Origin: a virus
Reading direction: 5' to 3' (one strand)
DNA length: 35,921 bases
IMG/VR virus record: IMGVR_UViG_3300017978_000288
Location: 1-35,921 of that record
Positions within the stretch are counted from its first letter, which is position 1. The number at the start of each line of letters is the position of its first letter. Positions 10,902-24,722 of the stretch are shown in pieces. The translations under genes and the position numbers were made by a program. The notes under the pieces are model-generated. The model was given only the letters and a program-made list of their open reading frames with translations, did not search any database and was not told the DNA's origin.

Positions 10902-10902
10902 T

Positions 10903-11979: not shown

Positions 11980-11997
11980 TTTAAATAATTTTAGTTT

Positions 11998-12035: not shown

Positions 12036-12070
12036 ACATAATTAACAAAAAACAAACAAAAAAAGATAAA

Positions 12071-13255
12071 TTATGCTACCACAAATACACCTTTTCTCAT
12101 TGCAGAACCAAAGTAGATTGGTAAAGCAACTGATTCCTCTACACGAACAGTAACTAAGTTCTTAGTAAAGTTATCTCCATCTTCGTAAGCAAACTCAGTA
12201 TTGATGTTATTTTCGAATAACAATTCAGCACCTTTTGATAAGTCAGCTACCATGAATGAATTTGCAGGGATAATGTCAGTAGCAATTACTGGCACACCAG
12301 CAACTGATAAGTTACCACTTGCAATTAAAGCAGGGAATGAATAACCAGCACCTGATTCCTTGTTAATCAACAATTCCATTTGGTCAATTGGATTAACCAA
12401 GATTGCATTTGGAGCAAAACGAGCAGCACGCAATTGAGCAACTGCATTAGCCAACTTATCCCAACGGTTAGAACCTGCTACTACTGAACCTGATGGTACA
12501 TAAGCAGTTGCATTCTCCCATAAACCTGAGAAATCAGAAGTTCCAGCAATGTCCATCAATTGGTCATCTTCGAAGTTTTGCAAGTCTTGTACCATTTGAG
12601 TAGATACAAAGTTTTGCAACCAAGTCAAACGAGATAACATTTGCTTAGAAATCTTAGAGAAAACTGCAATTGTCTTTGGAGTTACTTCGCTGATTGTGAA
12701 ATCGTAATCAATCTGTGCCTTAGAAGAACCTTCTGTTTGAATACCAACTCCACCTTCTCCACCACTCTTCTTAGCAAACTTGAATACACCATTCTGCTCA
12801 ATTACAGAAGTACGCATCAAATCTCTCAAATGTATTGTACGGAAAGGGTCAGTTAAGATAGTGTTTGATAAACCAGCAATCTTAGAAGCCCAATCAGAAC
12901 CGATGCTAGTTGGCAAAGTCATTGTACCAACTGCCTTAGTGTTCAAAGAAAAACCACCCTTAGAAACTCTTTCTAATGATTTGAATTGGTTAGCATTCTC
13001 ATTGAATACTCTTTGCAAATCAGATTCATTAACTGTCTCTACATTTTTAGCACGAAGGTCTAAGATAGTATCAGATAAACCTTTTTCAACCAATCCTAAT
13101 TTCTCTTCTAATGAGGCATATTTCTCACCTGCATTTTTTACTTCGTTAGTCAAATCATCGATGTTTAAACCTTCGATTTCACGACTAACACCTTTTTGAA
13201 TCATCTCGTTAAGGTCGCCTTTTACTTCCTCAACTAATTTTTTAATATCCTCCAT
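12071..13255 (-). CDS. Major capsid protein (HK97-fold type)
   Basis: 394 aa with a coiled-coil N-terminal delta-like region. Directly follows the prohead protease with overlapping stop/start, and is followed by a strong terminator. Confidence 0.85.
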   Translation of the reverse strand: MEDIKKLVEEVKGDLNEMIQKGVSREIEGLNIDDLTNEVKNAGEKYASLEEKLGLVEKGLSDTILDLRAKNVETVNESDLQRVFNENANQFKSLERVSKGGFSLNTKAVGTMTLPTSIGSDWASKIAGLSNTILTDPFRTIHLRDLMRTSVIEQNGVFKFAKKSGGEGGVGIQTEGSSKAQIDYDFTISEVTPKTIAVFSKISKQMLSRLTWLQNFVSTQMVQDLQNFEDDQLMDIAGTSDFSGLWENATAYVPSGSVVAGSNRWDKLANAVAQLRAARFAPNAILVNPIDQMELLINKESGAGYSFPALIASGNLSVAGVPVIATDIIPANSFMVADLSKGAELLFENNINTEFAYEDGDNFTKNLVTVRVEESVALPIYFGSAMRKGVFVVA

Positions 13256-13989
13256 TATTTAAACGAGTTTTTTAATTGTTGTAAAAATTCTAATTGTTGT
13301 TTTTGGATTAATTCTTCTGGATTAACAATTTCGGGAGTGGTAATAATTTCCGACTTCTCTCTACCGTTAATTAGTTTGAATATTTCCGACTTGATAAAGT
13401 TATACTCAATTTCTAACAATTCATAGGATTCATCTTTTAAATTTCCTTTACGCAACATTTTGTAAAGTTTTTCAAATCTATCAGATAAATCTTTTGCATC
13501 TAATGATTTCAACCCCAAAAATGGAGTATCAGGATTAGCTGCCCATAGAACAGAAGAAAACTCATATAATTTAACTTCTTGAATCTCATAATAAGGATTC
13601 TTATTTTTTGGCTCTACTTTTTCTTCCTTAATAGTTGAGAAACCAATTGAATGCTGATTAATTAAACCTTCTTCATAAAGTTTAAGTATATCTTCACCAA
13701 TTTCAGTATCAACAATTTTAGCTTCAAAGTAAAGACCAAAAGAATCCTCCTTTAAGACTTGTGGCTTTCCAAGTGGCTTAGAAGAATCATGGTCATGTAA
13801 AAACCAAATCTCATTCTTTCCATTTACACCTCTTTCTTTAATGGTTTTAGAAAATGCACCTGGCATAATCATATCACCATGTAAATCAACATTACCAAAC
13901 TTAGCAGCATAACCAGTAACGATTCGCTTTTCTATGTCTAAGTCAGTAATTTCTCCATCAGACTTTATTTTATAATCTCTCATATACAA
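13255..13989 (-). CDS. Prohead serine protease (HK97 family)
   Basis: GYAAKFGNVDLHGDMIMPGAF and LHDHD..KPLGK motifs. Helical C-terminal tail. Confidence 0.8.
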   Translation of the reverse strand: MYMRDYKIKSDGEITDLDIEKRIVTGYAAKFGNVDLHGDMIMPGAFSKTIKERGVNGKNEIWFLHDHDSSKPLGKPQVLKEDSFGLYFEAKIVDTEIGEDILKLYEEGLINQHSIGFSTIKEEKVEPKNKNPYYEIQEVKLYEFSSVLWAANPDTPFLGLKSLDAKDLSDRFEKLYKMLRKGNLKDESYELLEIEYNFIKSEIFKLINGREKSEIITTPEIVNPEELIQKQQLEFLQQLKNSFK

Positions 13990-14030
13990 TTCAATATTCG
14001 CAAATATAACAAAAATTAATTATTACCAAA

Positions 14031-14762
14031 CTATATAAATATTAGCCCACATCTACAATTAACCAATTCGGATGCAGGTGCACTATTGTCCCCTGGGGCA
14101 TTCATAGGGAATCCACCAACTATAAACTTTTCAGAAATTCCAATAGCAGGAGTGCTAGCCATAGCATTATGTGATGCTCTCTCCTTTCCATCTAATGTAA
14201 CTATCCACTTTTTCTTAATTTCTCTTTTCTCTAATTTAGCCCATTCTAAACTAGCAAGATTCATTATTTTAGTTATTTCTGTTCTTGCAATAGTTTGGGC
14301 TCTAATAACATTCTTTTGAGTAAGGTACAAAGCAAGCAAAGTTATGATAGCACTTGTTGGAATACCTTGGCTAAACTTATCTTCTACAAATCGCCTTATA
14401 TCGTTTTTAATTGTTCGAATGATACCAAGTACCACAAGGAACTCTGTTATGTTGTTAAATAGCAAAAGAATGAGCAAATACCAGGTGTTATTAAATTCAT
14501 CCTCTTCTGCTTTTTTTAATGATTGATTTAAAAACTCATTCTGCTTTCTTCCAAACTTTAAATAAGCATCTTTTAGAATCTCTAACATCCACCTATCGCT
14601 GAAATGCGAAGTAATGTGAAATGTATTTGGGTTTCTACCTTCTAGGCTTATAATGTAAGCTTTTGTTTCAACATTTAACTTTGTTTGCAGATAAGCATAA
14701 AAACCCCTTTCATTCATGTCATGCCTTCTTCTCCATGCTCGAATGTATTGCTCTTCTTTCAT
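14031..14762 (-). CDS. Minor head protein, Mu F / SPP1 gp7 family
   Basis: C-terminal WIVTLDGKERASHNAM...APGDNSAPASELVNCRCGL matches the family signature (D.R.R..H...PG....CRC). Confidence 0.8.
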   Translation of the reverse strand: MKEEQYIRAWRRRHDMNERGFYAYLQTKLNVETKAYIISLEGRNPNTFHITSHFSDRWMLEILKDAYLKFGRKQNEFLNQSLKKAEEDEFNNTWYLLILLLFNNITEFLVVLGIIRTIKNDIRRFVEDKFSQGIPTSAIITLLALYLTQKNVIRAQTIARTEITKIMNLASLEWAKLEKREIKKKWIVTLDGKERASHNAMASTPAIGISEKFIVGGFPMNAPGDNSAPASELVNCRCGLIFI

Positions 14763-14896
14763 CGCTTGTTTTTAAATATGCGTTCAACTTTTTTGCGTTC
14801 AATTCTTTTATGCTCAGGCTCATAAGTAAATAAGAACCCAAGCAAGAAAGAACCGACTGCACAAACAATAGTGATTGTTAGTGTGATGTTATCCAT
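14759..14896 (-). CDS. Unannotated 45-aa single-pass membrane micro-ORF between portal and MuF-like genes
   Basis: Hand translation: MDNITLTITIVCAVGSFLLGFLFTYEPEHKRIERKKVERIFKNKR. The ATG is 1 nt after the portal stop, and its TGA overlaps the next ATG (ATGA). It fills an otherwise empty 135-nt gap. Confidence 0.45.
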   Translation of the reverse strand: MDNITLTITIVCAVGSFLLGFLFTYEPEHKRIERKKVERIFKNKR

Positions 14897-14897
14897 A

Positions 14898-16271
14898 TTA
14901 ATCTTCATCTATAATTGGAGAACCAATAATAGTAGGGTCAATATTTAAACTACCAATTGGCACTTGGTTTGAACGAATATAAACACTTTGCATAATAGGG
15001 TCGTTAGTTGGCTCAAAGTCCATAAATACCCTTTTCTCATCTTGTGTAAGCACACCATCAAGTTTTTCAAGAATTGAGGCAGCATCTAAGAAGTTTTGCT
15101 TCATCTCTGGGTAAGCATCAACATCAAAACGCAAAATGTATTGAGCAGGGTTAATGTTCATTGTAGGAGATAACCAAGCAAGCATTTTCTCTAACACCTT
15201 AGATTGCAAAGGTATAACGCAGTTAATAATCATTCTACGAATAAAGTGTGCTAAGTTGCTTTCTGTTAAGTTATCAGAATTTAAAAGCACATAAGGGTAA
15301 TGCCATAAGCGACAAAGTTGCTCAGTAGATAACTTACTCATTTGGCGAAGGTCTAAGTCAATATTGCTTGTAGAAAGCTTTAAGTAACCCATCTTTGTAT
15401 TTGAGAAAGCAATACGACCCTGATTTGCAGAATTATAAATCTTATCATAAACTCTGTCTTGTAAGTCTTGATAACCAGTACCACTAATATCCTGAACATT
15501 AGGGTCATCTGTATAAAGCATTCCTACTGCACCACGAGTTTCGTAATTTTCAATAGCTACCTCTTCTCCTGAGTTTGCTTTTTGTAATACATTAGAGCCA
15601 GCTTGCAAAGGAGAGAATCCACGAGGGATGCTAGTAAAGTTTGTTTCGTTAGGATTAAAAGAACGGAAAGACAAGAAATACTTAGGCTCAATGTTTTTAA
15701 CATTTAAAGAAAAAATATTATACCCAACAATAGTACGAAAGCCATCAGTTACAATTTGGTAGTCATTTGCTGCAATAACATGTAGCCTTGCAATCTTACC
15801 TTTTTTAATTGGGTCCTCTTCTGCATAGATACCAACATCACCTAAAAGCAAATACCAAGAGAATATTGATTCAAAAAACTCCTTTGTAGTTTGATAGCTA
15901 TTAGGTTGTCTAAGCAATTGCAAAATTGGATGCTCTTCTAACTCCTTTAAGTTATTTTTCTTAATTGTATTAGCTTCCATGATACTTCTATCATTTGGTC
16001 GCATAAGCAAAGACTTATATCTTTCAGCCTTCTTAATATCAACTTTACTAGATTGGTAAAGTTCAATTGGCACTTCTACTGCACGAGATGCAATATCACT
16101 AATAATGGCATAAACATCCACATTCTTTTCATAACCATTGAGTATCGCATTACGATAATCAGCATTGTACAAAGAATAGGTTTGCCCACTTAAAAAAAAT
16201 TGTTGTTGCTTGCCAGTTTGACTAGCTACATTAATGGCTTTTTTGCCAGTAAAAAAATCAAGTAATCCCAT
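14898..16271 (-). CDS. Portal protein
   Basis: 457 aa, between terL and the MuF-like gene. Called from size and position. Confidence 0.8.
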   Translation of the reverse strand: MGLLDFFTGKKAINVASQTGKQQQFFLSGQTYSLYNADYRNAILNGYEKNVDVYAIISDIASRAVEVPIELYQSSKVDIKKAERYKSLLMRPNDRSIMEANTIKKNNLKELEEHPILQLLRQPNSYQTTKEFFESIFSWYLLLGDVGIYAEEDPIKKGKIARLHVIAANDYQIVTDGFRTIVGYNIFSLNVKNIEPKYFLSFRSFNPNETNFTSIPRGFSPLQAGSNVLQKANSGEEVAIENYETRGAVGMLYTDDPNVQDISGTGYQDLQDRVYDKIYNSANQGRIAFSNTKMGYLKLSTSNIDLDLRQMSKLSTEQLCRLWHYPYVLLNSDNLTESNLAHFIRRMIINCVIPLQSKVLEKMLAWLSPTMNINPAQYILRFDVDAYPEMKQNFLDAASILEKLDGVLTQDEKRVFMDFEPTNDPIMQSVYIRSNQVPIGSLNIDPTIIGSPIIDED

Positions 16272-16274
16272 TGT

Positions 16275-17657
16275 TTAAAAAATTAAGAGTTTCTTTTTAG
16301 AATACTTCGTATAAATCGCATACCTAATAGCATCAAGTGCGTGATTAAAATCATCTATGGGTTTATTGATTGGTTTCCCACCAACAGTAAGCCATTGATA
16401 ATTATCCACTTCTTTCTTGATATTCTTTGACCTGCGAGTATAATACACCTCATACTCACGCAATTTACTAATACCAGCATTAACTGAATCGTTCCCTTTT
16501 ACTGCTTTAAGAACTTTGACCCCTGCTCTGCGTAATTCCTCAATTGATTTAGGGTCTGCACTATCTGCATAAATTTCCCCATATTTATCTGGGTACATTT
16601 CAATCCTTTTCACCAAATCAGAATTAGTTAATCCTTTATCGTAAATTACTTCGTCAAGGTACAACTTATTAGCAATTTTCGCAATTCTTACTAATGCAGT
16701 AGGGTCATTAGAAAATCCAAAGTCAAGACCACTAAATATAACCTCAGCATCTTTTGGAAAGAACTCACACACTTGCCAATCATGATAAATTAAGGATTCA
16801 CTACTTGGCTTAGGGTTTTGCTGATAAAGTGATTCAAAAGTAAAAGGCTCATTCTTTTTTACCTTTAAAAGTTTCTCAGCACTATGTTTAGCCTCCCATA
16901 AAGCTTCTCCTTCTTTTCTTGTGTCATAACCATTCTCTGCTCTTTCACGAATAGCAGGAAACTCAATAATTGTCCAATCATCATCTCTCTCTAAAAGCCT
17001 TCCTGCTAGGTCATCATCATACCACCTGGTTTGAATAATAATTTGTGCAGAATCGTTATGTAAGCGAGTTTCGAACACATCGGTGTACCAATTCCACAAT
17101 TGCTCCTTTATAATGTTAGATTGAGCCTCTTGTCGGTCTTTTAAGGGGTCATCTATAATACCTAAGTCCACGGCAGTTCCTGTTAGTGAACCTCCACGAC
17201 CAACTGCTTTTATATAACCACCTGAACCAACTACTTGAAAAAACTCAGCAGTTCTGATAGCTTCACCTTTTCTTTCACTAATCCTAGTATCAGGAAACAA
17301 TATCTTATACTCATCACTCGTAATCCTTCTTTGTATCTCACTACTGAATTGTTCTGCTAAGGTTGCGTTATAAGAAGCAAGAGCAATCTTTAAATTAGGC
17401 TTTTTACCCAAAGCATAAGTAGGAAAGCTACGAGTAGATAATTCAGACTTCCCGTGCTGAGGAGGCACAAAAATCATTAACTTCTTTATCTCTCCATTAA
17501 GAACCTTATCTAAATGGTCTGCAATAACCTTGTGAAACCATTGCATATCATAATCAGGCTTAATGTACTTTACAAAGTTATCAAATGACCTCCTCGAAAT
17601 CTCTCTCCTCAATATCTCTCTCTCTAAGTTCTGAGAGCCGTTGTCTAATTTCTTCAT
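16275..17657 (-). CDS. terL: Terminase large subunit
   Basis: Walker A-like VPPQHGKSE, IIQTRWYDDDLAGRL ATPase coupling motif, and a C-terminal nuclease region DFGFSNDPTA...HALDAIRYA. Confidence 0.9.
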   Translation of the reverse strand: MKKLDNGSQNLEREILRREISRRSFDNFVKYIKPDYDMQWFHKVIADHLDKVLNGEIKKLMIFVPPQHGKSELSTRSFPTYALGKKPNLKIALASYNATLAEQFSSEIQRRITSDEYKILFPDTRISERKGEAIRTAEFFQVVGSGGYIKAVGRGGSLTGTAVDLGIIDDPLKDRQEAQSNIIKEQLWNWYTDVFETRLHNDSAQIIIQTRWYDDDLAGRLLERDDDWTIIEFPAIRERAENGYDTRKEGEALWEAKHSAEKLLKVKKNEPFTFESLYQQNPKPSSESLIYHDWQVCEFFPKDAEVIFSGLDFGFSNDPTALVRIAKIANKLYLDEVIYDKGLTNSDLVKRIEMYPDKYGEIYADSADPKSIEELRRAGVKVLKAVKGNDSVNAGISKLREYEVYYTRRSKNIKKEVDNYQWLTVGGKPINKPIDDFNHALDAIRYAIYTKYSKKKLLIF

Positions 17658-18063
17658 CGCTTAATTGTCTTGGGTCTATAATATCTTCTCTAACTACCTT
17701 TTCCATTTGAATAGCTTGTAATGCCTTTCCATGCTGAAACTCTAACATGAACTGAGTATTCTTCATCTCACCATTCTTAATATCACCTAAGATGGCATTA
17801 GCTACTACTGCAATAAAACCTGGGGTTTGAGAATCGTTAGCTACTCTTTTAATCTCACTAACTGTCATTGATTGAACTAAGGCAGTAACACTCATTACAT
17901 CATGTCTACTAAGCTTGACATCAAGAATATCACCTGCCTCCTCAATAACCTTTCTAATCATACTCTTTGGTCTTCCATTAGGATTACGAACCTCACCCTT
18001 TTGAACAGGCTTTAAATTCTTAATACTATTTGGATGAACCTCTCTTTTCTTTTCTTCACTCAT
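17581..18063 (-). CDS. terS: Terminase small subunit candidate
   Basis: First gene of the late arm, 160 aa, basic N-terminus with NPNGRPKS motif. Overlaps terL by 77 nt. Confidence 0.6.
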   Translation of the reverse strand: MSEEKKREVHPNSIKNLKPVQKGEVRNPNGRPKSMIRKVIEEAGDILDVKLSRHDVMSVTALVQSMTVSEIKRVANDSQTPGFIAVVANAILGDIKNGEMKNTQFMLEFQHGKALQAIQMEKVVREDIIDPRQLSDEEIRQRLSELRERDIEERDFEEVI

Positions 18064-18157
18064 AAGTGTAGTTGTTTAAGGGTTTCAAATTGGGTTTGTA
18101 TTTTTTTAAAACGAAATCATAAATCAATACTTTTTCTAAAATTGGCTAACCGAGTTT

Positions 18158-18200
18158 TCATTACACTATATATTACACTAAGAGTATACTAAGAGTATAA
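18158..18200. repeat. Left inverted arm: 2 x ATTACACTA (12-bp phased) plus 2 x AAGAGTATA(C/A)T
   Basis: The reverse complement of 18160-18190 (agtatactcttagtgtaatatatagtgtaat) recurs at 19100-19142 with a 12-nt insertion. Confidence 0.85.
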
Positions 18201-18333
18201 TAATATAATATATATGTTTTCTTATTTGTAATGAATCTAAATAACACCTAACTACTTAAAAACCAATTAGTTAAACATAAGTTAAACCCGATTTTTGACC
18301 TATTTAGACTCAATCTTAATAATGATTACTACG

Positions 18334-18363
18334 CAAACATAGCACTTCTTATTTAGATTCAAT
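18334..18363 (-). promoter_or_regulatory. Leftward Bacteroidota-type promoter-like element (ATTG-N18-TATGTTTG)
   Basis: Plus strand has CAAACATA at 18334-18341 and CAAT at 18360-18363. It lies about 270 nt upstream of the terS ATG. Called from sequence pattern only. Confidence 0.25.
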
Positions 18364-18836
18364 CTAATTTCTTTGTTTTTGCCTAATTTTTATACCCCAT
18401 GTTTACAGGTATTACCCAAATTTTCTTAGGTTTTTTTTGTTGGGTACCCAGGCTAAACCTACCTACCCCCTTTTGCTCCCACACTTTTCCAGGTGCACCC
18501 CTTTAATGCTCAAATACAACCCAAAACCACACAATCACACACTTATAAAGGTGTAAAGGTAGTTATTAAGGTATCCAGGTGGTGGGGTGGGTGGTAGTAC
18601 GGGGGTAACCCCCATAGCCTTTTCAGGGTTCACCCCTTTATCATTGGATATATAAACCTTTCTCCCTTGCATTAAACCAGGTGCACAAAGGCATAAACAA
18701 AGGGGCTTACAAAGGGGTGCACTAAGGGAAAGAAAGAAGCACCTACTAAGGGAAACAAAAGGGCTTATTAAGACTCATTCTAAATAGCTACAAAAGGTAT
18801 TTATTTAGAACAAATCCAGATAACAAAGGGCTTACT

Positions 18837-18857
18837 TATTTAGAACAAATCTAAATA
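18837..18857. repeat. Perfect 21-bp palindrome TATTTAGA-ACAAA-TCTAAATA (best copy of the TATTTAGA box family)
   Basis: Read directly from the sequence. Related boxes lie at 18301, 18350, 18779 (complement) and 18802. Confidence 0.85.
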
Positions 18858-19074
18858 GAGCCAACATTCAATTTAAGGGGTCAAATCTTTGATTTAAGAC
18901 ACTTTATATAGTTAAATGATAAATCATAAGGGAAGCACTAAGAAAGTCCAACACAAGCAAAATAGGGGGTTTATAAGGGCAAATAGGTTTATAAGTTTAT
19001 ACGGCTAAATAACCTGGATTAATACCCCTAATGATTTGAATTAACAACTACGGCAATAGGTTATTATTCTTTTT

Positions 19075-19165
19075 AGTATACTCTTTTCTTACACTTAATA
19101 GTATACTCTTAGTGTACTTAATAGTGTAATATATAGTGTAATTAATAGTGTAATTGTGTAATTAG
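19075..19165. repeat. Right inverted arm: 2 x AGTATACTCTT plus 4-5 x 12-bp-phased TAGTGTAAT iterons
   Basis: AGTATACTCTT at 19075 and 19100. TAGTGTA(C/A)T at 19110, 19122, 19134 and 19146, with a degenerate copy at 19154. Confidence 0.85.
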
Positions 19166-19240
19166 GAAAAAAGGTAAAACTTTTATTAATATGCAAGCAT
19201 TTAAGACAACAAATTATTTTTAAAATATTTTACTAAATGT

Positions 19241-19271
19241 TTTGGATTAATGTAAACAAGTATTATTATTG
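19241..19271 (+). promoter_or_regulatory. Early promoter-like element TTTG-N19-TATTATTG
   Basis: TTTG at 19241-19244, an exact 19-nt spacer, then TATTATTG at 19264-19271. This matches the Bacteroidota -33/-7 layout (TTTG / TAnnTTTG) with one mismatch. Confidence 0.4.
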
Positions 19272-19299
19272 TGAATTGTTTAACCTAAAATATATTAAA

Positions 19300-19476
19300 A
19301 TGAAAAATCAAACAACATTCGAAAAGAAAATCAAGCTAGTAAATGAGCTGGTAATTGATTTAAACAAAGTGGTAGAAACACAAAGCGAAAATTTTGAGCA
19401 AATTAACTACCAATTGAGTATTTTAAACGCTTCCGTAATTCAAGCCCTTAAATACTTAGAAAATCACAAACTTTAA
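19300..19476 (+). CDS. Hypothetical protein (58 aa), first early gene
   Basis: The ORF track starts at 19237, but the promoter-like box lies inside that extension. The internal ATG at 19300 has the usual AAAATG context. Followed by a terminator. Confidence 0.55.
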   Translation: MKNQTTFEKKIKLVNELVIDLNKVVETQSENFEQINYQLSILNASVIQALKYLENHKL

Positions 19477-19484
19477 TCAATCCA

Positions 19485-19515
19485 GGGGGTGTAATAGCCC
19501 CCTTTAAAATCTTTT
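19485..19515 (+). terminator. Rho-independent terminator
   Basis: GGGGG-tgtaatag-CCCCC followed by TTTAAAATCTTTT. Confidence 0.6.
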
Positions 19516-19534
19516 AATCTTAATCAATACCAAA

Positions 19535-19669
19535 ATGAAAAACTCAAAAGAAAATCTAGCACAATTATATTTCGGATTAGATAAATTTACCTTTCAAGAT
19601 TTAATCGAATTATCAAAACAATTAGGGGTATTATTTTTAGCCCTATTAGTTGCTTCTTTATTATCTTAA
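19535..19669 (+). CDS. Unannotated 44-aa micro-ORF with hydrophobic C-terminus
   Basis: Hand translation: MKNSKENLAQLYFGLDKFTFQDLIELSKQLGVLFLALLVASLLS. CAAAATG start context. Below the 60-aa ORF-track cutoff. Confidence 0.4.
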   Translation: MKNSKENLAQLYFGLDKFTFQDLIELSKQLGVLFLALLVASLLS

Positions 19670-19697
19670 CTTTTTAACCTTTTAAAAATATACTAAT

Positions 19698-20018
19698 ATG
19701 AGCACATTTAACAAGTACGGTTTTATTGAAGACCTAAAAAATGATTTATTAAACGATATTAAAAACGGATATTTAAAAGATACGGATGAAATTTGGGATA
19801 GGATACATGAACAAATTGATAATGCTGTAATTTATTACTCAGACTGTTTCGAAATTTGTAAAGAACTTAATTTTACTGATTTTACATCCCATGAATTAGG
19901 CGAAGCTTCAAACATTTGCCAGGCAGCATACTTTGCTCTTTATGATTGGGTAAATGAAGAATTTGACCAAAGTGAAATAGAAGAAGCAATAGAGGCAAAG
20001 CAATTAGAAGAAAACTAA
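19698..20018 (+). CDS. Hypothetical strongly acidic early protein (106 aa)
   Basis: 26 D/E versus 7 K/R by my count. No motif recognised. Confidence 0.8.
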   Translation: MSTFNKYGFIEDLKNDLLNDIKNGYLKDTDEIWDRIHEQIDNAVIYYSDCFEICKELNFTDFTSHELGEASNICQAAYFALYDWVNEEFDQSEIEEAIEAKQLEEN

Positions 20019-20044
20019 ATTTTTAACCTTAAATAATTAATCCA

Positions 20045-20623
20045 ATGAAAACGCAAATAGTTGAAACATACCTACCAATTTTTCCAGGCTTTTATAATTC
20101 CTTAATTGAAGGTGATTTTGAAATTGACCAATTTTTATACGAAAATGATTTGACCTATGAAAATATAAATTTTGACTTTAAAAATTATTCAATAGATGTA
20201 TCAAAAAAAGCCTGCTATTATATAGAAAAACAATTAAAAGATTTCGGCATTTTGTCTATTCAATTCCAGGAATTAATCAGCCCCAAATATTATAACTTTT
20301 CTACTGACTCAATTAATTGTGAAATTGAAATAGAGCCCGAAAAAATTCGCTGGTATATTCACAATAACTTTGAAAATTTTCGGGAATACATTTACGATAA
20401 TTATTCCCATAAATCTGGATTTATATCAAGCTACTCAAACCAGTCTTGCGATTGGATAACCAATACAAGTAATTTTTCAGACTTTACTCAAAATAAACAT
20501 TATTTAGGCTCTATTTTGACTTTTATTTGCCAAAATGAAGGAATAAACGAAAATCATTTATGCCAATTTATCCTAGATGATATATACATTGACAACTATA
20601 TTATAATTCTAGAAAATCAATAA
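20045..20623 (+). CDS. Hypothetical early protein (192 aa)
   Basis: Long ORF, Asn/Tyr/Phe-rich, N-terminal YLPIFPGFYNSLIE. No family recognised. Confidence 0.8.
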   Translation: MKTQIVETYLPIFPGFYNSLIEGDFEIDQFLYENDLTYENINFDFKNYSIDVSKKACYYIEKQLKDFGILSIQFQELISPKYYNFSTDSINCEIEIEPEKIRWYIHNNFENFREYIYDNYSHKSGFISSYSNQSCDWITNTSNFSDFTQNKHYLGSILTFICQNEGINENHLCQFILDDIYIDNYIIILENQ

Positions 20624-20646
20624 TTAACCTATAAAATAAAAAAGCA

Positions 20647-20847
20647 ATGAAAAATGAATTTCCAATTTGGGGCATCAAGCCAAATGAAAAAATAGAAAGC
20701 CTTTTATATACTAAGTGCATTTCATATAAAGAAGCTTTTAAAATTTTAGAATTGCTTGAAAACAAATACAAATGCACTAATTGCAGAATTCAGATTTTAG
20801 ACCTGAATGCCCCTATTAAAAACGATTTTATAAACGCTATAAATTAA
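20647..20847 (+). CDS. Hypothetical protein (66 aa)
   Basis: ORF with AAAGCAATG start context, tightly spaced in the operon. Confidence 0.65.
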   Translation: MKNEFPIWGIKPNEKIESLLYTKCISYKEAFKILELLENKYKCTNCRIQILDLNAPIKNDFINAIN

Positions 20848-20853
20848 AACACA

Positions 20854-21084
20854 ATGAAACGATTTAGAATTTCTCAAACTGATAATTTAAAAATTAATGT
20901 AACCTTAAAAGGTAGCCTTATAATTCCCACAATCCAGGATAACGGCTTCACCAATATAGAACAAATTAAAAATTTTGTTTTAAACAAATTGCCCTGGAAT
21001 GTAAAGGGATACGGTAGGCGAATAGAAATAGGTATCCACAATATGGATAAGGTTCAAAGTAAATATATTAACACATTTTCATAA
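20854..21084 (+). CDS. Hypothetical protein (76 aa)
   Basis: ORF with ACACAATG start context. Followed by a terminator. Confidence 0.65.
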   Translation: MKRFRISQTDNLKINVTLKGSLIIPTIQDNGFTNIEQIKNFVLNKLPWNVKGYGRRIEIGIHNMDKVQSKYINTFS

Positions 21085-21095
21085 CAATTAAAATT

Positions 21096-21117
21096 AGGGC
21101 TTTTTAGCCCTTTTTTT
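21096..21117 (+). terminator. Rho-independent terminator (AGGGCT-TTTT-AGCCCT plus T7)
   Basis: 6-bp GC-rich stem, 4-nt loop and a T-run, 12 nt after the stop of 20854..21084. Confidence 0.75.
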
Positions 21118-21134
21118 ATAGACTTTATATTAAT

Positions 21135-21188
21135 AGCCCTCTTTGGGGCTTTTATTGTTTATAGGGCTTTTTAGCCCTTTGTTTATTT
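21135..21188 (+). terminator. Two further tandem terminator-like hairpins
   Basis: AGCCC-tctttg-GGGCT (21135-21150). An exact second copy of AGGGCTTTTTAGCCCT lies at 21163-21178. Each is followed by T-rich sequence. Confidence 0.45.
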
Positions 21189-21427
21189 AATAGCCTACCA
21201 ATGTATTAAGCGAAGCAATTCAATTGAATACAGGGCAAAAGAAAGGCTAATAAACCAGGTATTTAATTAGGCTTATTAATAGCCTGGAAAACCTTAGTGC
21301 CTTATTAACTCAATACTTTGCATTTAAGCGACTTTTATAGCTTATAAGGTGATTGTATTAAGTACCTATTAAAAGTGCCTTAGAATTAAAGTTTAGTGCC
21401 TTAAAAACAATTTAAATATTTATACCA

Positions 21428-21658
21428 ATGAGAAACAAAATTAGTATCCAGAAAAGTACACTATTAAGAAACATTCTAAATAAGCTATTTAAAAGCTACG
21501 GAAAAGTGGAAAAAGTGCCCCAAGGCTCTATGGGGAAAAAAGCTGATAGTCCTGGGATTTTTTTCGGGAAAATTTCAAATTTGGTAGGAATCCTTTTGTG
21601 GATTATAGTTTTGCTAAATTTAATTATCACTTTTTTAATTTATAAAATAATATTTTAA
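21428..21658 (+). CDS. Small tail-anchored membrane protein (76 aa)
   Basis: Basic N-terminal half and a C-terminal TM segment, LVGILLWIIVLLNLIITFLIY. Confidence 0.65.
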   Translation: MRNKISIQKSTLLRNILNKLFKSYGKVEKVPQGSMGKKADSPGIFFGKISNLVGILLWIIVLLNLIITFLIYKIIF

Positions 21659-21665
21659 TAAATGG

Positions 21666-21695
21666 TGTAGTTTTTAAATTTAATAACTACATTTG
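21666..21695 (+). promoter_or_regulatory. 7-bp inverted repeat TGTAGTT-N12-AACTACA overlapping a perfect -7 box TACATTTG; candidate operator/promoter of the RHH gene
   Basis: TGTAGTT at 21666-21672, AACTACA at 21685-21691, TACATTTG at 21688-21695. It lies 27 nt upstream of the RHH ATG. No clear -33 TTTG was found. Confidence 0.35.
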
Positions 21696-21721
21696 TTCAA
21701 GTTAAAAATACAAATAAAATT

Positions 21722-21922
21722 ATGAACGATAAAACAACAACAAACCCAAAGAAAGCAGGTCGTCCTTATGGTGTTCCTACAAGTGTAATTTCTGTTAGAA
21801 TACCTACTGAATTAAAAAAGAAAGCAGATGAGCGTTTTGGTAATCATTGGGCAGGAATGTTTAGGCATTTTGTAGAGGTATATTTATTAGAAAGAGAGCC
21901 AATAGAAATTAAGAAAAAGTAG
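21722..21922 (+). CDS. Ribbon-helix-helix (CopG/Arc-type) transcriptional regulator
   Basis: 66 aa. VISVRIPTELKKKADERFG is a typical RHH beta-strand/helix-1 start. Confidence 0.65.
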   Translation: MNDKTTTNPKKAGRPYGVPTSVISVRIPTELKKKADERFGNHWAGMFRHFVEVYLLEREPIEIKKK

Positions 21923-21960
21923 ATTGTTTTTTATATTAATAGGTTAAAAATGAGTGTGTA

Positions 21961-21993
21961 AAGTGGTGAAATTTTTTTTCATCACTTTATTTT
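21961..21993 (+). terminator. Rho-independent terminator after the RHH gene
   Basis: AAGTGGTGA / TCATCACTT forms a 9-bp stem with one G-T pair, with T-rich sequence in and after the loop. Confidence 0.55.
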
Positions 21994-22052
21994 AAAACTA
22001 TTTTTCTGAAAATTAAAAATTAGGGACTTTTTCTAAAAATAAATTATCAATC

Positions 22053-22583
22053 ATGGAAATTTGGAAAGACATAGAAGGATATAATGGAATTTACCAGGTA
22101 AGTAATTATGGTAATGTTTATGTTATAGGAAGGAATATTATAAGGAATAATGTTAATTATTTTCTTAAACCAAAATATATGAAATGCAGATACGACTTAG
22201 ATGGATATTTATTAGTTGGATTAACAAAGGATAAAAAACAGAATACTTTTAGAGTTCATAGACTTGTTTGTGAAGCATTTATTAAAAATGAATTTAATAA
22301 ACCTCAAATCAATCATATTGATGGTAACAAATCAAATAATAATATTAGCAATTTGGAATGGTGTACTGCAAGTGAAAATATAAAACACGCATTTAAATTG
22401 GGATTAAATAAATTTAGTCATAAAAATAGATTAGCAGTTAGTAAAAAAGTTATTAATGTTGAAACAAATACTATTTATGATTCTATTAAAGAAGCATCAA
22501 TGGCACATAATTTTAAATCAACTACTCTTTATGATAAATTGAGTGGCAAATCAAATAATAATACTTCTCTTAGATATCAATGA
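22053..22583 (+). CDS. HNH homing endonuclease (NUMOD4 + HNH_3 + C-terminal DNA-binding module)
   Basis: MEIWKDIEGYNGIYQVSNYGNV (NUMOD4-like). HRLVCEAF...INHIDGNKSNNNISNLEWCTASENIKHA (HNH core). VINVETNTIYDSIKEAS (NUMOD1/IENR1-like). Confidence 0.85.
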   Translation: MEIWKDIEGYNGIYQVSNYGNVYVIGRNIIRNNVNYFLKPKYMKCRYDLDGYLLVGLTKDKKQNTFRVHRLVCEAFIKNEFNKPQINHIDGNKSNNNISNLEWCTASENIKHAFKLGLNKFSHKNRLAVSKKVINVETNTIYDSIKEASMAHNFKSTTLYDKLSGKSNNNTSLRYQ

Positions 22584-22684
22584 AAAAAGAATTAGATGAA
22601 ATAAATCACAAATGTGTAGCTATTGCCTACTGGATTATAGCTATTTGCTCAATTGTTATACTACTTAAATGTTGTAACCTATGA
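22580..22684 (+). CDS. Unannotated 34-aa membrane micro-ORF
   Basis: Hand translation: MKKELDEINHKCVAIAYWIIAICSIVILLKCCNL. ATGA overlaps at both ends (HNH stop and next ATG). Confidence 0.4.
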   Translation: MKKELDEINHKCVAIAYWIIAICSIVILLKCCNL

Positions 22685-22857
22685 CACCACAAGAAATGAC
22701 ACAAGAACTATTAGAAGAGTTAACTAACAATTATGATATAACTCCCAAGATAGCAGTAGAGATGGCAATGTTTGCAATAGACAAAGTAGTCAATTACGAA
22801 GGTATTTATAACTCAGATTTCTGGATAGAAGTAATGGAAGAATTAGACAATTTATAA
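22681..22857 (+). CDS. Unannotated 58-aa acidic ORF
   Basis: Hand translation: MTPQEMTQELLEELTNNYDITPKIAVEMAMFAIDKVVNYEGIYNSDFWIEVMEELDNL. Just under the ORF-track cutoff. Confidence 0.5.
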   Translation: MTPQEMTQELLEELTNNYDITPKIAVEMAMFAIDKVVNYEGIYNSDFWIEVMEELDNL

Positions 22858-22930
22858 TATGAAAATTAGACTATTTGTATCTCATAACAGGCTTGAAGTA
22901 TTGCCTTGTTTCACCCTTTTTAAATACAGA

Positions 22931-22960
22931 AGAAGTGCTTCGATGCACTTTTCTTGGATT
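22931..22960 (+). terminator. Terminator-like hairpin
   Basis: GAAGTGC-ttcgat-GCACTT(T) stem followed by TTCTTGG..ATTTT. Confidence 0.35.
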
Positions 22961-22986
22961 ATATTTTCACTAAGCTTCGGAATTAG

Positions 22987-23337
22987 ATGGAGGTAATCTA
23001 CGGAACTGTACCAAGTAAGTCTAACTCTTACAGGATAGCAGGAAGGTTTATGTATAAAACCAAAGTCCTAAAAGATTATGAAGCTTCATTCATTGAGCAA
23101 TGCAAAGTTTACAAAGATGGAAACCTGGAAGGTAATCTTAAAATTATTTTGAAGGTTTATTATCCTAATAGAAAATCTGATTTAGATGGAGTTACAAAAG
23201 CAGTATTAGACTTGCTTCAAAAGGTTAATGCCTTTGAGAATGATAATAAGGTTGCAGAATTATTTTTATACAAAGGATTGGATAAGGAAAATCCTAGAAT
23301 TGAATTTACGATTGAAGTATTAGATTATATTATTTAA
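22987..23337 (+). CDS. rusA: RusA-like Holliday junction resolvase
   Basis: 116 aa. GTVPSKSNSY, RKSDLDGVTKAVLDLL and ENDNKV parallel the RusA motifs (PPS.N; D.DN..K...D.L; DD..V). Confidence 0.6.
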   Translation: MEVIYGTVPSKSNSYRIAGRFMYKTKVLKDYEASFIEQCKVYKDGNLEGNLKIILKVYYPNRKSDLDGVTKAVLDLLQKVNAFENDNKVAELFLYKGLDKENPRIEFTIEVLDYII

Positions 23338-23355
23338 CACTAAACCCAACACAAA

Positions 23356-23460
23356 ATGAAAGCAAAATTAAAAGAACTTTACTGGATTATGGTAGAAGTA
23401 TTTATCTCAATAATTTACATTCCAGTTGAATTATTTAAACAATTTTTTAACCTAAAATAA
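23356..23460 (+). CDS. Unannotated 34-aa hydrophobic micro-ORF
   Basis: Hand translation: MKAKLKELYWIMVEVFISIIYIPVELFKQFFNLK. ACAAAATG start context. Confidence 0.35.
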   Translation: MKAKLKELYWIMVEVFISIIYIPVELFKQFFNLK

Positions 23461-23467
23461 ACGCACA

Positions 23468-23833
23468 ATGACAACACAAGAATCACACAAATTTCTTACC
23501 TATTATTCTTTTTGTAATTACATGACTGACTTTATAGAAGACAGGTGGTCTAATTCATCAATGAATGTTAAGAAAGTAAAGTACCTAACCAATCAATTAA
23601 AAGGAGAGTTGGAGAAATCTATTAATCACATTTTCGAACAAAAGGAAAATGGTGGTATAAACATGGACAATGTCTTAGAGCAGTTTGTCAATGCTAGCTT
23701 TGTTATGGAATACTTTTTTAATGTAGGTTTAGAAATGGATTTATTAGAAGAGGATAAAAAGGTAGAACTTAATGATAGAATGAATAAATTATTAAAGGAG
23801 TATAACATAGACTTAACAAAAAATGAGAGATAG
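23468..23833 (+). CDS. Hypothetical protein (121 aa)
   Basis: ORF with GCACAATG context. Overlaps the next gene by 11 nt. Confidence 0.75.
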   Translation: MTTQESHKFLTYYSFCNYMTDFIEDRWSNSSMNVKKVKYLTNQLKGELEKSINHIFEQKENGGINMDNVLEQFVNASFVMEYFFNVGLEMDLLEEDKKVELNDRMNKLLKEYNIDLTKNER

Positions 23834-24185
23834 CATAGTAGAATCAGTAAGGGAAGATTTACACAATCGTTCCCAGGTTGGAATCAAGAAGTATAATCAA
23901 ACTCTTGATAGAGAAGATTTAGATGAGGTTGATTGGATTCAGCACGCATACGAAGAATTGCTTGATGGGGCTTTGTATCTTAAAAGATTAAAGGGTGATG
24001 TAGAGAGTATGTACAACTCCTGGGATGACCTAATAGCAGAACACTTTAAAGTAAAAGAAGAACTTTCAGTAAAAATCAGAATCATTGAGAATCTTAATAA
24101 GGTAATTTTATCCCAAGAGCAAGAGATAAAAGAGTTAAAAAAGGATAATCATTTGCAACAAAAAAGAAGGGCTTGGCATATTTAG
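23823..24185 (+). CDS. Hypothetical protein; possible MazG-like / dNTP pyrophosphohydrolase-type helical domain plus coiled coil
   Basis: R..VG.KKY......L....W...AYEELLD.ALYL resembles the N-terminal pattern of phage dATP/dGTP diphosphohydrolase/MazG-like proteins. This is a weak, by-eye match. Confidence 0.35.
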   Translation: MRDSIVESVREDLHNRSQVGIKKYNQTLDREDLDEVDWIQHAYEELLDGALYLKRLKGDVESMYNSWDDLIAEHFKVKEELSVKIRIIENLNKVILSQEQEIKELKKDNHLQQKRRAWHI

Positions 24186-24204
24186 AGCCCTTTTTTATTT
24201 TTTT
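24168..24204 (+). terminator. Rho-independent terminator overlapping the end of 23823..24185
   Basis: AGGGCT-tggcatatttag-AGCCCT followed by TTTTTATTTTTTT. Confidence 0.7.
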
Positions 24205-24236
24205 ATCACAATTATTAAATATTTTTTAATATTTTA

Positions 24237-24267
24237 TTTGATACTAAATAAATGTTTACTAATATTG
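24237..24267 (+). promoter_or_regulatory. Promoter-like element TTTG-N19-TAATATTG for the replication/recombination unit
   Basis: TTTG at 24237-24240, an exact 19-nt spacer, then TAATATTG at 24260-24267. It lies 20 nt upstream of the ATG at 24287. It shows the same one-position deviation (TAnnATTG) as the 19241 element. Confidence 0.45.
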
Positions 24268-24286
24268 TACAACAAATAACAACAAA

Positions 24287-24698: not shown

Positions 24699-24722
24699 AT
24701 TTTAACTTAAACAATTAACACA

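Follow-up and report, generated by a model that had tools for sequence, protein, structure and literature searches.

Results

A gene-free hub between terS and the early genes

The window analyzed here, a 35,921-nt stretch of viral DNA taken at full length from an IMG/VR record, carries terS on the minus strand at 17581–18063, and no ORF of at least 60 aa is present from there to position 19237. This agrees with an earlier note, made from the letters alone, that had described 1,173 bp (18064–19236) as free of such ORFs; the longest small ATG ORFs, which that note had translated by hand as 45, 34 and about 29 aa, were found again as 45 aa (18535–18672, minus strand), 35 aa (18399–18506, plus strand) and 30 aa (18916–19008, plus strand). 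The first early gene has its probable start codon at the ATG at 19300–19302, so the gene-free gap is probably nearer 1.24 kb. The segment, called the hub below, is equally gene-empty in independent gene calls on nine public contigs with identical TerS, and an ORF-free gap of 1.05–1.7 kb lies upstream of terS in 26 of 26 related IMG/VR hubs with enough sequence. Over 18064–19400, the segment compared, a 35,896-nt contig from run ERR3489833 is 100% identical to the window. Its features, with the strand where one applies, are as follows.

18064–18159, minus strand: proximal part of the terS 5' leader, downstream of the predicted late promoter, with an invariant T7 run at 18101–18107
18160–18210, plus strand: left iteron array, four units of 11–12 bp (ATTACACTATAT, ATTACACTAAG, AGTATACTAAG, AGTATAATAAT)
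18196–18221: A/T-only tract (TATAATAATATAATATATAT...), a candidate unwinding element, in which ATATATAT is invariant in relatives
18222–18244: putative operator P1 (TTATTTGTAATGAATCTAAATAA), a palindrome match whose position is kept in all clades
18300–18322: putative operator P2, a palindrome just downstream of the predicted late transcription start
18334–18362, minus strand: predicted late promoter, -33 TTG at 18360–18362 and -7 TATGTTTG at 18334–18341, reading toward terS
18349–18371: putative operator P3, a palindrome overlapping the late promoter -33 element
18400–18438: core motifs a and b (TGTTTACA..TATTA; TTAGGTTTTTTTT), conserved columns in A1
18442–18479: core left arm, made of GGGTACCC (18442–18449), a C-rich stretch and ACCCCCTTTTGCTCC (18465–18479)
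18480–18589: spacer cassette, constrained in length and swappable in sequence, with short G/C quasi-palindromes CCAGGTGCACCCC and GGTATCCAGGTGG
18590–18613: core right arm GGTGGTAGTACGGGGGTAACCCCC, which repeats the left arm imperfectly in inverted orientation and is kept in 33 of 33 sequences
18614–19072: right part of the mosaic island, purine-rich on the plus strand, with most of the motif families of the earlier note
18686–18722, plus strand: CAAAGG units at 12-nt spacing (18686, 18698, 18710), then CTAAGGGAAA
18765–18787, 18801–18823 and 18836–18858: putative operators P4, P5 and P6, palindrome matches
18873–18898, plus strand: motif M (TTAAGGGGTCAAATCTTTGATTTAAG), a conserved module of 26–42 nt
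19008–19075, plus strand: long-loop hairpin (AATAACCT...AGGTTATT) followed by ATTCTTTTT, read from the sequence as a weak rightward terminator candidate
19073–19165, minus strand: right iteron array, seven to eight units of about 12 bp, inverted relative to the left array
19166–19299, plus strand: A-rich and then extremely AT-rich tract
within 19166–19299, plus strand: predicted early promoter, -33 TTTG at 19241–19244, TGTAAACA at 19251–19258 and -7 TATTATTG at 19264–19271

Composition and repeat density

The middle of the hub stands out by composition. The G+C counts per 60 nt that the earlier note had given for 18421–18720 (27, 26, 26, 27 and 29, or 45%) were exact on recount, compared with a genome mean of 32.6%, and the core contains both of the 60-nt windows that rank highest in GC over the entire 35.9 kb, starting at 18575 (61.7%) and 18442 (58.3%). 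Repeats are also dense: the hub holds 29 direct and 32 inverted 10-mer repeats, against 4.4 ± 2.9 and 7.5 ± 3.5 in 200 dinucleotide shuffles, none of which reached either value, while three coding segments of equal length had the same repeat level as their own shuffles. All of the repeats previously listed were found within 1 nt of where they had been placed; they are real, and mostly fall inside the strain-variable part of the hub, and the GGGGG-TAA-CCCCC hairpin among them is part of the core right arm. That list had, however, missed the strongest ones, a 23-bp palindrome and two inverted iteron arrays. The description of the repeats as neither tandem nor CRISPR-like held for its second half, in that the repeat search and TRF found no array of regular identical repeats with unique spacers in the hub, and only in part for its first, since TRF reports tandem arrays of 11 nt × 2.5 at 18177–18203 and 12 nt × 5.1 at 19093–19152. 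Purine loading changes strand near 18550, each half being purine-rich in the outward sense. A G-quadruplex idea, raised by eye, was dropped, the G-runs not being kept across clades.

Predicted outward promoters

A sigma-70 promoter scan of the hub returned seven sites against 7.0 in shuffles, and the Bacteroidota consensus was used instead; TerL relatives support a Bacteroidota host. With this consensus, outward-facing late (toward terS) and early promoters of the Bacteroidota -33/-7 type are predicted, and the features of a Bacteroidota sigma-A promoter (-33 TTG or TTTG, -7 TAnnTTTG, 17–23 nt spacing, conservation, position before an operon) are found at the level of sequence. Transcription is predicted to begin near 18327 (leftward) and 19278 (rightward). 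The minus-strand pattern TTG-N17-23-TAnnTTTG has only six matches genome-wide, the late promoter being one of them, and the late -7 box occurs at the homologous place in 24 of 27 hubs (the window and 26 relatives). At the early promoter the -7 box of the window has one mismatch to the consensus; of the 27 hubs, 17 (17 of the 26 relatives) have a canonical TTG-N-TAnnTTTG ahead of their first early ORFs, which in L014, L029 and L035 sits at the homologous place. The segment 18400–18438, read on the minus strand, is promoter-like and akin to the early promoter spacer (TTTGG..TAAT..TGTAAACA), with no TAnnTTTG -7 box; TGTAAACA itself occurs at two sites only in the genome, 18400–18407 (minus) and 19251–19258 (plus). 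The consensus scan gave no canonical promoter facing into the core in the window, and a terminator scan of the hub found none.

A palindromic operator and two inverted iteron arrays

The 23-bp palindrome TTATTTAGA-N5-TCTAAATAA, counted with up to three mismatches, has seven matches genome-wide where 0.26 would be expected: six in the hub and a seventh in a downstream promoter region near 21.46 kb. The palindrome is kept in all clades, and most relatives have the second operator pair just upstream of the early promoter instead, about 86 bp apart. Because the six palindromes surround both promoters and a further copy recurs near 21.46 kb, the early/late switch is probably under the control of a single dimeric regulator. 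Neither an RHH nor an HTH domain was detected when 30 ORFs of the early arm and the packaging region were scanned with Pfam, so that the phage RHH protein named in the earlier note is at most putative.

Perfect copies of ATTACACTA number five in the genome, all in the hub, two in the left iteron array (plus) and three in the right (minus), and the repeat search pairs the two arrays as inverted 32-nt arms, 91% complementary and 907 nt apart. Iteron arrays are found in all relatives and clades, and left and right arrays agree within each clade in carrying the C-type or the T-type iteron variant. The copy number of the right array differs between near-identical genomes, and array positions relative to the promoters differ between clades. 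An iteron-like unit also stands beside the operator at 21455–21483. As to the neighboring AT-rich tracts, 100-nt windows over 18196–18221 have about 21–23% GC and the one at 19209 has 14%; the 80-nt windows at 18165, 19221 and 19055 rank third, seventh and ninth among the least stable duplexes genome-wide, although other intergenic spots are equally weak.

A conserved left half, a constrained core and a mosaic island

BLASTN alignments run unbroken from terS into the hub as far as about 18250–18490, depending on clade, at 66–72% identity, and the left half (18064–18615) can be aligned across clades as motif islands at fixed spacing. The T7 run and its flanking bases are also kept in all clades. 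Further afield, neither the hub nor the 20 kb at 10000–30000 matched any of 50,697 phage records by BLASTN; the hub is absent from distant TerL relatives (31–48% identity) and from cultured Flavobacterium phages, which are therefore of no help, and an IMG/VR pattern scan for the core matched only within the same phage group.

The most strongly conserved motif of the hub is ACCCCCTTTTGCTCC, whose TTTGCT is invariant in 33 of 33 sequences. The distance from TTTGCTCC to GGGTAGCC is 121–137 nt in all clades, and the orientation of the core relative to terS never flips among relatives. Alleles of the spacer between the arms are common to several clades, and in L245 the spacer cassette is replaced between flanks 98–100% identical to the window. 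The mosaic island as a whole spans about 18490–19200 and varies block-wise even where both sides are 97–100% identical; its part at 18614–19072 shows 25–92% identity in genomes with flanks 97–100% identical and could not be aligned between clades. The boundaries are sharp: the terS side is clonal up to 18490–18610, and a second boundary lies at about 19200–19300. Within the island, the equivalents of 18686–18722 in relatives are analogous CAAAG or (AAGAAAG)n purine arrays, and motif M has the opposite orientation in most relatives, looks by eye like half of an imperfect palindrome some 85 nt long in L014 (clade B), and has an M-like copy at 21317–21335. An attP or invertible switch was considered and rejected, no integrase or recombinase being found in the 40 ORFs scanned with PHROGs or Pfam.

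No sign of a hidden gene or a folded RNA

That the hub is made up of one or more protein-coding genes, missed or decayed, is exceedingly improbable. Some relatives do have short ORFs of 30–96 aa in it, and the plus-strand ORF from 18399 gives peptides that are alike in clades A and D. However, relative to the start of that ORF the invariant TTTGCT falls in frame 0, 1 or 2 depending on clade, the ORF meets a stop after 13 codons in clade C and after one codon in clade E, and the lengths of hub indels are not multiples of three. Clustering of small ORFs across clades gives similar 'peptides' in several frames at once, as is expected from conservation of the DNA, and no open frame kept across relatives was found among the clades compared. 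The earlier note had held that codon-periodic conservation would make the hub a missed gene; none was found across relatives, which argues that it is not one.

It is also very unlikely, in our estimation, that the core, the island or both are transcribed into a long non-coding RNA, structured or not, for regulation, replication priming or phage-host conflict. Precedents for RNA priming are the origin transcript of lactococcal phage c2 and RNA II of ColE1. The outward purine loading of each half, the rightward hairpin and T-run terminators inside the hubs of relatives, and the core arms of clade A (18442–18471 and 18589–18611), which are 92% complementary with five pairs changed on both sides (5 of 500 shuffles), speak for such an RNA. 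Over all 33 sequences, however, complementarity of the arms drops to 69%, with covariation that does not exceed that of slid controls; the RNAalifold covariation terms are -0.37, +0.08, -0.16 and +2.31, and folding z-scores against shuffled sequence of +1.12 (plus strand) and +0.90 (minus strand) show no excess folding energy. Many of the G/C palindromes have 'loops' of 0–2 nt and are therefore impossible as RNA hairpins, and the lack of a canonical promoter facing into the core of the window also weighs against transcription of this part. Rfam gave no match at the gathering score in the window and nine relatives and only chance-level matches in a lenient scan (E = 2.4, a sub-threshold sbrA-like match to the hairpin at 19008–19075, and E = 4.2), and a tRNA/tmRNA scan of the hub returned nothing. 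GOLLD, ROOL and similar phage RNAs resemble the hub in size class, in GC elevation within an AT-rich genome and in lacking ORFs; unlike them, the hub has no Rfam match, no covariation and no thermodynamic signal. Overall, the hub shows no sign of a hidden gene or a folded RNA.

Discussion

Taken as a whole, the hub is a patchwork of candidate DNA-binding sites that, judged by comparison among relatives, are real and conserved. The earlier note had offered four roles. A generic protein-binding cis hub is clearly supported by the predicted promoters, the genome-unique operator palindrome and the iterons; a replication origin and a pac site are plausible; a structured RNA finds no support from Rfam, folding energy or covariation; and a cos site is unlikely, given a TerL of the SPP1 headful type and contig ends in which no clustering was seen, long contigs starting at arbitrary positions. 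Besides regulating transcription, the hub is probably also a start site of replication and/or packaging.

Our best reading, which is tentative and which we would put at not quite an even chance, is that the hub is a protein-bound double-stranded DNA control region combining a promoter/operator switch with an iteron-type bidirectional origin. Let us assume that the roughly 1 kb between the promoters is indeed bracketed by two inverted, helically phased arrays of 11–12-bp iterons, each beside an A/T-only tract, and has at its center a conserved, GC-rich dyad core with a constant distance between the two arms. An initiator might then coat both arrays and the core, upon which the AT-rich flanks would melt and the DnaB-type helicase of the phage (30072–31427) would be loaded with the help of a DnaD-like protein (28732–29208). 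Both forks would travel in the direction of transcription until they met where the two gene arms converge, near 31.5 kb. The left array and the leader, being close to terS, may in addition serve as the TerS binding site (pac), as in SPP1. Consistent with an origin, the phage encodes replication genes (a DnaB-like helicase and a phrog_270-type initiation/primosomal protein), the two TRF arrays provide helically phased iterons, and AT-rich tracts of 14–22% GC that could serve as unwinding elements adjoin them at 18196–18221 and 19200–19300.

Several observations temper this scenario. The strand-skew reversal at the hub is confounded with the direction of transcription. The two arrays stand about 900 bp apart, a wide separation for one origin. 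No DnaA box (TTATCCACA, up to one mismatch) occurs in the hub of the window and only sporadic ones in relatives. The 158-aa Rep-like protein is 59–94% identical across clades and conserved over its whole length, with no variable specificity domain, and showed no correlation with the C/T iteron type or with spacer cassettes. Since the predicted late 5' leader includes the left array, and a unit resembling the iterons recurs at 21455–21483, the iterons could instead be transcriptional sites, and conservation of the core could equally serve packaging or late-promoter activation.

Known origins offer a measure of how far the resemblance goes. [quoted passage not shown] The hub is like SPP1 oriR/oriL and the PLE origin in being a long ORF-free segment with several direct-repeat families and AT-rich tracts, in its location (between divergent units as in PLE, or among the longest intergenic regions as with oriR), and in that a DnaB-type helicase together with a loader or initiator is encoded by the phage, as in origin systems of this type. 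It differs in having no sequence similarity to these origins, in the arrangement of its iterons, which flank a GC-rich dyad core as two inverted arrays some 900 bp from each other, and in that its initiator-like gene, at a distance of 9.5 kb, shows no co-variation with the repeats.

The main rival, possible if on balance unlikely, takes the conserved left half as an SPP1-type pac region. TerS would bind to repeated sites on both sides of a loosely defined cleavage zone within the core, where TerL would make the cut, and packaging by the headful mechanism would then run leftward through terS; the non-encapsidated right end would be recombinogenic, giving rise to the mosaic island. TerL has Terminase_6N and Terminase_3C domains, its only solved homologue being the SPP1 gp2 nuclease domain (2WBN), and a Mu_F/gp7-like head protein is also SPP1-like. 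The hub adjoins terS; the conserved arms at a fixed distance around a sequence-free spacer and the sharp boundary at 18490–18610 between clonal terS side and mosaic far side would fit such a cleavage zone; and long contigs are permuted, as expected of headful packaging or of circular assembly. The pac region of SPP1, in which pacC lies between pacL and pacR, shares sequence with both the late promoters and the 5' end of terS, and the terminase represses its own synthesis (PMC6316719). SPP1 pac and the hub thus share an SPP1-type TerL, a position by terS at the head of the late operon, an internal late promoter, conserved sites around a less specific center and possibly terS autoregulation. However, SPP1 pac extends into the terS coding sequence, whereas in the hub the left iteron array, the leader and the late promoter are within 300 bp of terS and the conserved core lies farther out, 330–550 bp upstream of terS and beyond the late promoter, and we know of no characterized pac site as far away. 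SPP1 pac spans about 270 bp, and the hub at its whole length is four times as long. Moreover, one identical TerS protein occurs with different spacer cassettes, no relationship being found between spacer allele or iteron type and TerS sequence; the second mosaic boundary at about 19200–19300 is sharp where a decaying gradient would be expected, and the second, inverted iteron array 900 bp away is unexplained by pac. No clustering of contig ends was seen, the ends being scattered or in low-complexity (AAGAAAG)n tracts, though the metagenome scan gave just six true hits, a small number for testing termini; one apparent end at the core edge carries a Nextera adapter remnant.

Alternatively, the hub might be a transcriptional switch only, with two promoters, the operators of one regulator and late activator sites in the core, the remainder being length-constrained spacer and recombination-tolerant filler, an explanation that we consider rather unlikely. 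Promoters and operator palindromes are the best-supported elements of the hub, and the same operator, iteron-like and M-like motifs recur at a second regulatory gap at 21.1–21.5 kb. The core lies about 40–250 bp beyond the late -33 element (40–320 bp upstream of the predicted start), where activators bind, and the early-promoter-like module at 18400–18435 on the minus strand would also belong to such a switch. The divergent switch of phi29 pairs A2b/A2c with A3 around p4 sites within about 220 bp, and in lactococcal phage c2 the early/late intergenic region also carries the origin, in the same ORF-free gap. Like these, the hub is predicted to have back-to-back early and late promoters and one regulator with sites at both. 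In contrast to the 0.2–0.6 kb of the phi29 and c2 regions, its promoters are about 900 bp apart and follow Bacteroidota -33/-7 logic, and a conserved core and a hypervariable island lie between them. About 1 kb with at least four repeat families and two iteron arrays of 50–90 bp is well above the needs of known phage switches, and the array-to-promoter positions are not kept between clades.

A further proposal concerns the island rather than the whole hub. It is distinctly unlikely, we think, that the segment at 18490–19200 is, instead of filler, a fast-diversifying non-coding determinant whose alleles are swapped among genomes 97–100% identical. It would then be held between anchors, with the core arms on the left and the right iteron array and early promoter on the right. 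Candidates for such a determinant are an origin/iteron cassette, decoy DNA, or an unstructured RNA under conflict-driven selection. Examples of conflict in this setting are escape from origin-targeting nucleases, satellites and superinfection exclusion.

Irrespective of which reading is correct, the hub is of a kind of element already known, and its sequence is new; if it is a promoter/origin region only, it is ordinary in kind. Its value lies in the phages that carry it. Signals for regulation, replication and packaging are almost uncharted in Bacteroidota (Flavobacteriia-type) siphophages, and for a phage group that is widespread in freshwater and marine habitats the hub supplies a set of parts open to testing: the two predicted promoters, an operator of 23 bp that is unique in the genome and marks every major promoter region, paired iteron arrays and a conserved GC-rich dyad core. 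It also illustrates that, in phage genomes that are clonal elsewhere, mosaicism can be strongest in a non-coding segment, which matters for strain-level assembly because contigs break at the hub. Should the island prove to be an origin or specificity cassette, it would bear on the conflict-driven evolution of cis-elements.

Position and composition of the hub

The window is an essentially complete siphophage genome, and the hub, its ORF-free stretch of about 1.2 kb from 18064, lies between a minus-strand late arm and a plus-strand early arm that begins at about 19300.

17581–18063, minus strand: TerS, opening the late arm
16275–17657, minus strand: TerL, opening the late arm
14898–16271, minus strand: portal, opening the late arm
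33223–33678, minus strand: endolysin, late arm
Early arm, plus strand: HNH endonuclease, RusA, PD-(D/E)XK exonuclease and C5 methylase
28732–29208, plus strand: 158-aa replication-initiation/primosomal-like (DnaD-like) protein (Rep), early arm
30072–31427, plus strand: DnaB-type helicase, early arm

The longest TerL ORF is 460 aa and shares 77 nt with terS; in public gene calls the start lies further downstream (423 aa), leaving no overlap. No integrase was found in the 40 ORFs searched against PHROGs or Pfam. The second early ORF (19698–20018, 106 aa) may encode an anti-restriction protein: Pfam gives a weak match, below threshold (E = 0.0012; 19.7 bits, cut-off 25), to PF08684, the DNA mimic Ocr. 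A NUMOD4 and HNH_3 homing-endonuclease-like gene (22053–22583) lies where the early arm is poorest in GC (23%).

The measurements of the earlier note were all correct: the hub holds no ORF of at least 60 aa (the longest from ATG are 45, 35 and 30 aa), the per-line G+C counts are 27, 26, 26, 27 and 29, and every repeat it listed was found within 1 nt of its listed position. The two most GC-rich 60-nt segments of the genome (61.7% and 58.3%, against a mean of 32.6%) fall in the core, the GC-rich conserved part of the hub with arms at 18442–18479 and 18590–18613. Direct 10-mer repeats number 29 in the hub against 4.4 ± 2.9 in dinucleotide shuffles, and inverted ones 32 against 7.5 ± 3.5, counts equalled by none of 200 shuffles; three coding control segments had repeat densities like those of their own shuffles.

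Operator palindromes and iteron arrays

Most of the motif families that had been listed (CCAGGTGCAC, ACAAAGGGGCTTA, TAAGGGAA and GGTTTATAAG) are strain-specific and sit in the mosaic island at 18490–19200. What had been overlooked is a 23-bp palindrome and two iteron arrays. The palindrome, TTATTTAGA-N5-TCTAAATAA, occurs in the hub at 18222, 18300, 18349, 18765, 18801 and 18836 (P1–P6) and a seventh time at 21461, within a second regulatory gap; chance alone would give only 0.26 copies in the genome.

18160–18210, plus strand: left iteron array (TRF, 11 nt × 2.5)
19073–19165, minus strand: right iteron array (TRF, 12 nt × 5.1)

The best inverted pair between the arrays has 32-nt arms, 91% complementary and 907 nt apart. 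All five perfect copies of ATTACACTA in the genome lie in the arrays, two in the left on the plus strand and three in the right on the minus strand, and iteron copy number varies among near-identical genomes (the window, L245, L247, L250 and L252).

Predicted promoters and a second regulatory gap

The nearest cultured relatives by TerL are Flavobacterium phages (33–49% identity), and an uncultured Bacteroidetes MAG includes a contig with 85% TerL identity; we therefore applied the Bacteroidota promoter pattern, TTTG at −33 and TAnnTTTG at −7.

18360–18362 (TTG) and 18334–18341 (TATGTTTG), minus strand: predicted late promoter, canonical pattern with a 17–23-nt spacer
19241–19271, plus strand: predicted early promoter, homologous site with one mismatch

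The late promoter is one of only six canonical minus-strand matches, and its −7 box is found at the homologous position in 24 of 27 hubs (the window and 26 relatives). P3 overlaps its −33 element. A repressor would be expected to act just past the predicted start, on its downstream side, which is where P2 and P1 are found; the predicted 5′ leader of about 265 nt contains the left iteron array. Upstream of the first early ORFs a canonical TTG-N-TAnnTTTG is present in 17 of the 27 hubs, most of them with TGTAAAC in the spacer and usually with two palindromes just upstream. TGTAAACA has only one further copy in the genome, on the opposite strand at the left edge of the core, in a promoter-like module without the TTTG of the −7 box.

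The predicted early promoter falls within the first 35 nt of a 79-aa ORF (19237–19476), and ATG 19300 is the most likely start codon of the first early gene, a choice that shortens this ORF to 58 aa. In the related loci L014, L029 and L035 the first early ORF is likewise short (about 40–75 aa) and starts just downstream of the homologous promoter.

A second ORF-poor gap, at 21085–21483, carries three tandem hairpin and T-run terminators (about 21096–21185), three copies of AGTGCCTTA (21296, 21374 and 21395), a sequence (21317–21335) resembling motif M, a conserved 26–42-nt module found in the hub at 18873–18898, and the seventh palindrome fused to an iteron-like unit (21455–21483). A canonical TTG-N-TAnnTTTG promoter begins at 21581. 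This gap is probably the boundary between immediate-early and middle transcription.

Conservation and mosaicism

Relatives were retrieved by TerL as 59 IMG/VR loci in several clades (96–97%, 86% and 82–84% TerL identity, plus distant ones). An ORF-free gap of 1.05–1.7 kb before terS is kept in all 26 relatives with enough upstream sequence; the hub is absent from the distant relatives (31–48% TerL identity) and from cultured Flavobacterium phages. Deposited phages gave no DNA-level match to the hub or to window positions 10000–30000 (20 kb), and an IMG/VR scan found the core pattern nowhere outside this phage group. BLASTN alignments run continuously from terS into the hub to about 18250–18490, depending on clade, at 66–72% identity, and in the multiple alignment islands are conserved at conserved distances: a T7 run, the iterons, an invariant ATATATAT tract, the palindromes, GCAAACATAG, CTTTGTTTTTG, TGTTTACA..TATTA, TTAGGATTTTTTT, GGGTACCC, ACCCCCTTTTGCTCC, GTAG and GGTGGTAGTCGGGGGGTAGCC. 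From TTTGCTCC to GGGTAGCC the distance is 121–137 nt in every clade, with the intervening sequence swapped for unrelated alleles.

In L014 of clade B (e.g. hub 676–773 and 785–830, window orientation) motif M appears, by eye, to form an arm of an imperfect palindrome about 85 nt long. After M, clades B and C have a hairpin (GC-rich in clade B) that is preceded by an A-run and followed by a T-run, a sequence pattern that may represent a terminator, possibly bidirectional, inside these hubs. The window retains only one copy of M, inverted relative to these hubs.

The mosaic island was mapped finely with public contigs encoding an identical TerS protein. L245, L247, L250 and L252 are 97–100% identical to the window from the late arm into the hub as far as about 18490–18610, and in L247 and L250 identity returns to 95–100% from about 19200–19300 onward; between these limits it is only 25–92%. 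The differences are block-wise, and the blocks are common to several genomes; this is recombination between old alleles and not scattered mutation. In the equivalent place relatives carry CAAAG units at 12-nt spacing or (AAGAAAG)n tracts, where assemblies often break.

The polypurine (AAGAAAG)n tract, 50–70 nt long, is conserved left of the right-hand array in relatives (L014, 941–980; L029, 900–940; L035, 850–925), and several metagenome contigs (L005, L032 and L040) stop within it, for which assembly breakage is the most likely cause. The marine contig OSIY01000724 (L157) ends 8 nt past the left edge of the core with AGAGACAG; we rejected this end as a genome terminus, AGAGACAG being a Nextera mosaic-end adapter tail and the end an artefact.

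Discussion

The coding-signal check proposed in the earlier note bore out that the region is not a gene: there is no conserved frame, and no short ORF in the hub is conserved across relatives. Alignment indels include 1, 2 and 14 nt, and more than one frame yields similar 'peptides' simultaneously, which is what conservation at the DNA level should produce. The ORF from 18399 was rejected as a gene, the invariant TTTGCT lying in frame 0, 1 or 2 by clade and the frame closing within 13 codons in clade C and one codon in clade E. The suggestion of a structured RNA found no support in Rfam, folding or covariation. Neither the window nor nine relatives matched an Rfam family, neither strand of the core folds more stably than its shuffles (z = +1.1 and +0.9), and RNAalifold covariation terms were −0.37 and +0.08 for clade A (plus and minus strand), −0.16 for 33 sequences and +2.31 for the island. 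The sole recurrent long-range pairing joins the core arms (18442–18471 with 18589–18611); in clade A it holds at 92%, and five of its pairs have changes on each side (5 of 500 shuffles). Over the 33 sequences it drops to 69%, and covariation does not exceed that obtained after sliding the partner by one column. We read it as an imperfect inverted DNA repeat built of G-runs and C-runs. Many of the short G/C palindromes (GGGTACCC, GGTGCACC, GGATCC, GGGCCC) would leave only 0–2 nt as a loop, which fits dimeric DNA-binding sites and not RNA hairpins.

We regard it as solid that this is a DNA-level control hub, with predicted early and late promoters facing outward and one palindromic operator at every major promoter region. 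The roughly 1 kb between the promoters would be an iteron-type origin of bidirectional replication, the reading we favour because the two mirrored, helically phased iteron arrays evolve in concert, A/T-only tracts adjoin each array, the conserved dyad core has fixed arm spacing, the hub separates divergent arms whose point of convergence is at 31.5 kb, and the genome encodes a DnaB-type helicase and a DnaD-like initiation protein. [quoted passage not shown] The hub contains no DnaA boxes, neither Rep nor TerS co-varies with repeats or cassettes, and strand skew at the hub is confounded with transcription.

The main rival to the origin is a pac region of the SPP1 type. The only solved homologue of TerL is the SPP1 gp2 nuclease domain, SPP1 pac overlaps late promoters and the terS start, and a recombinogenic, non-encapsidated end could give the sharp clonal-to-mosaic boundary in the core. 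Contig ends showed no clustering in a comparison of low power, with six true metagenome hits. Origin and pac could coexist, TerS using the leader and left array and replication the remainder. We consider it unlikely that the island acts as a diversifying non-coding determinant of specificity or conflict.

In kind the hub is familiar: it is the lytic-phage region for early/late control and origin/pac function. Its sequence and layout are unrelated to those of any characterised region. What is new in the layout is the set of Bacteroidota promoters about 900 bp apart, the genome-unique 23-bp operator, the inverted iteron arrays, the GC-rich dyad core and the hypervariable non-coding island.
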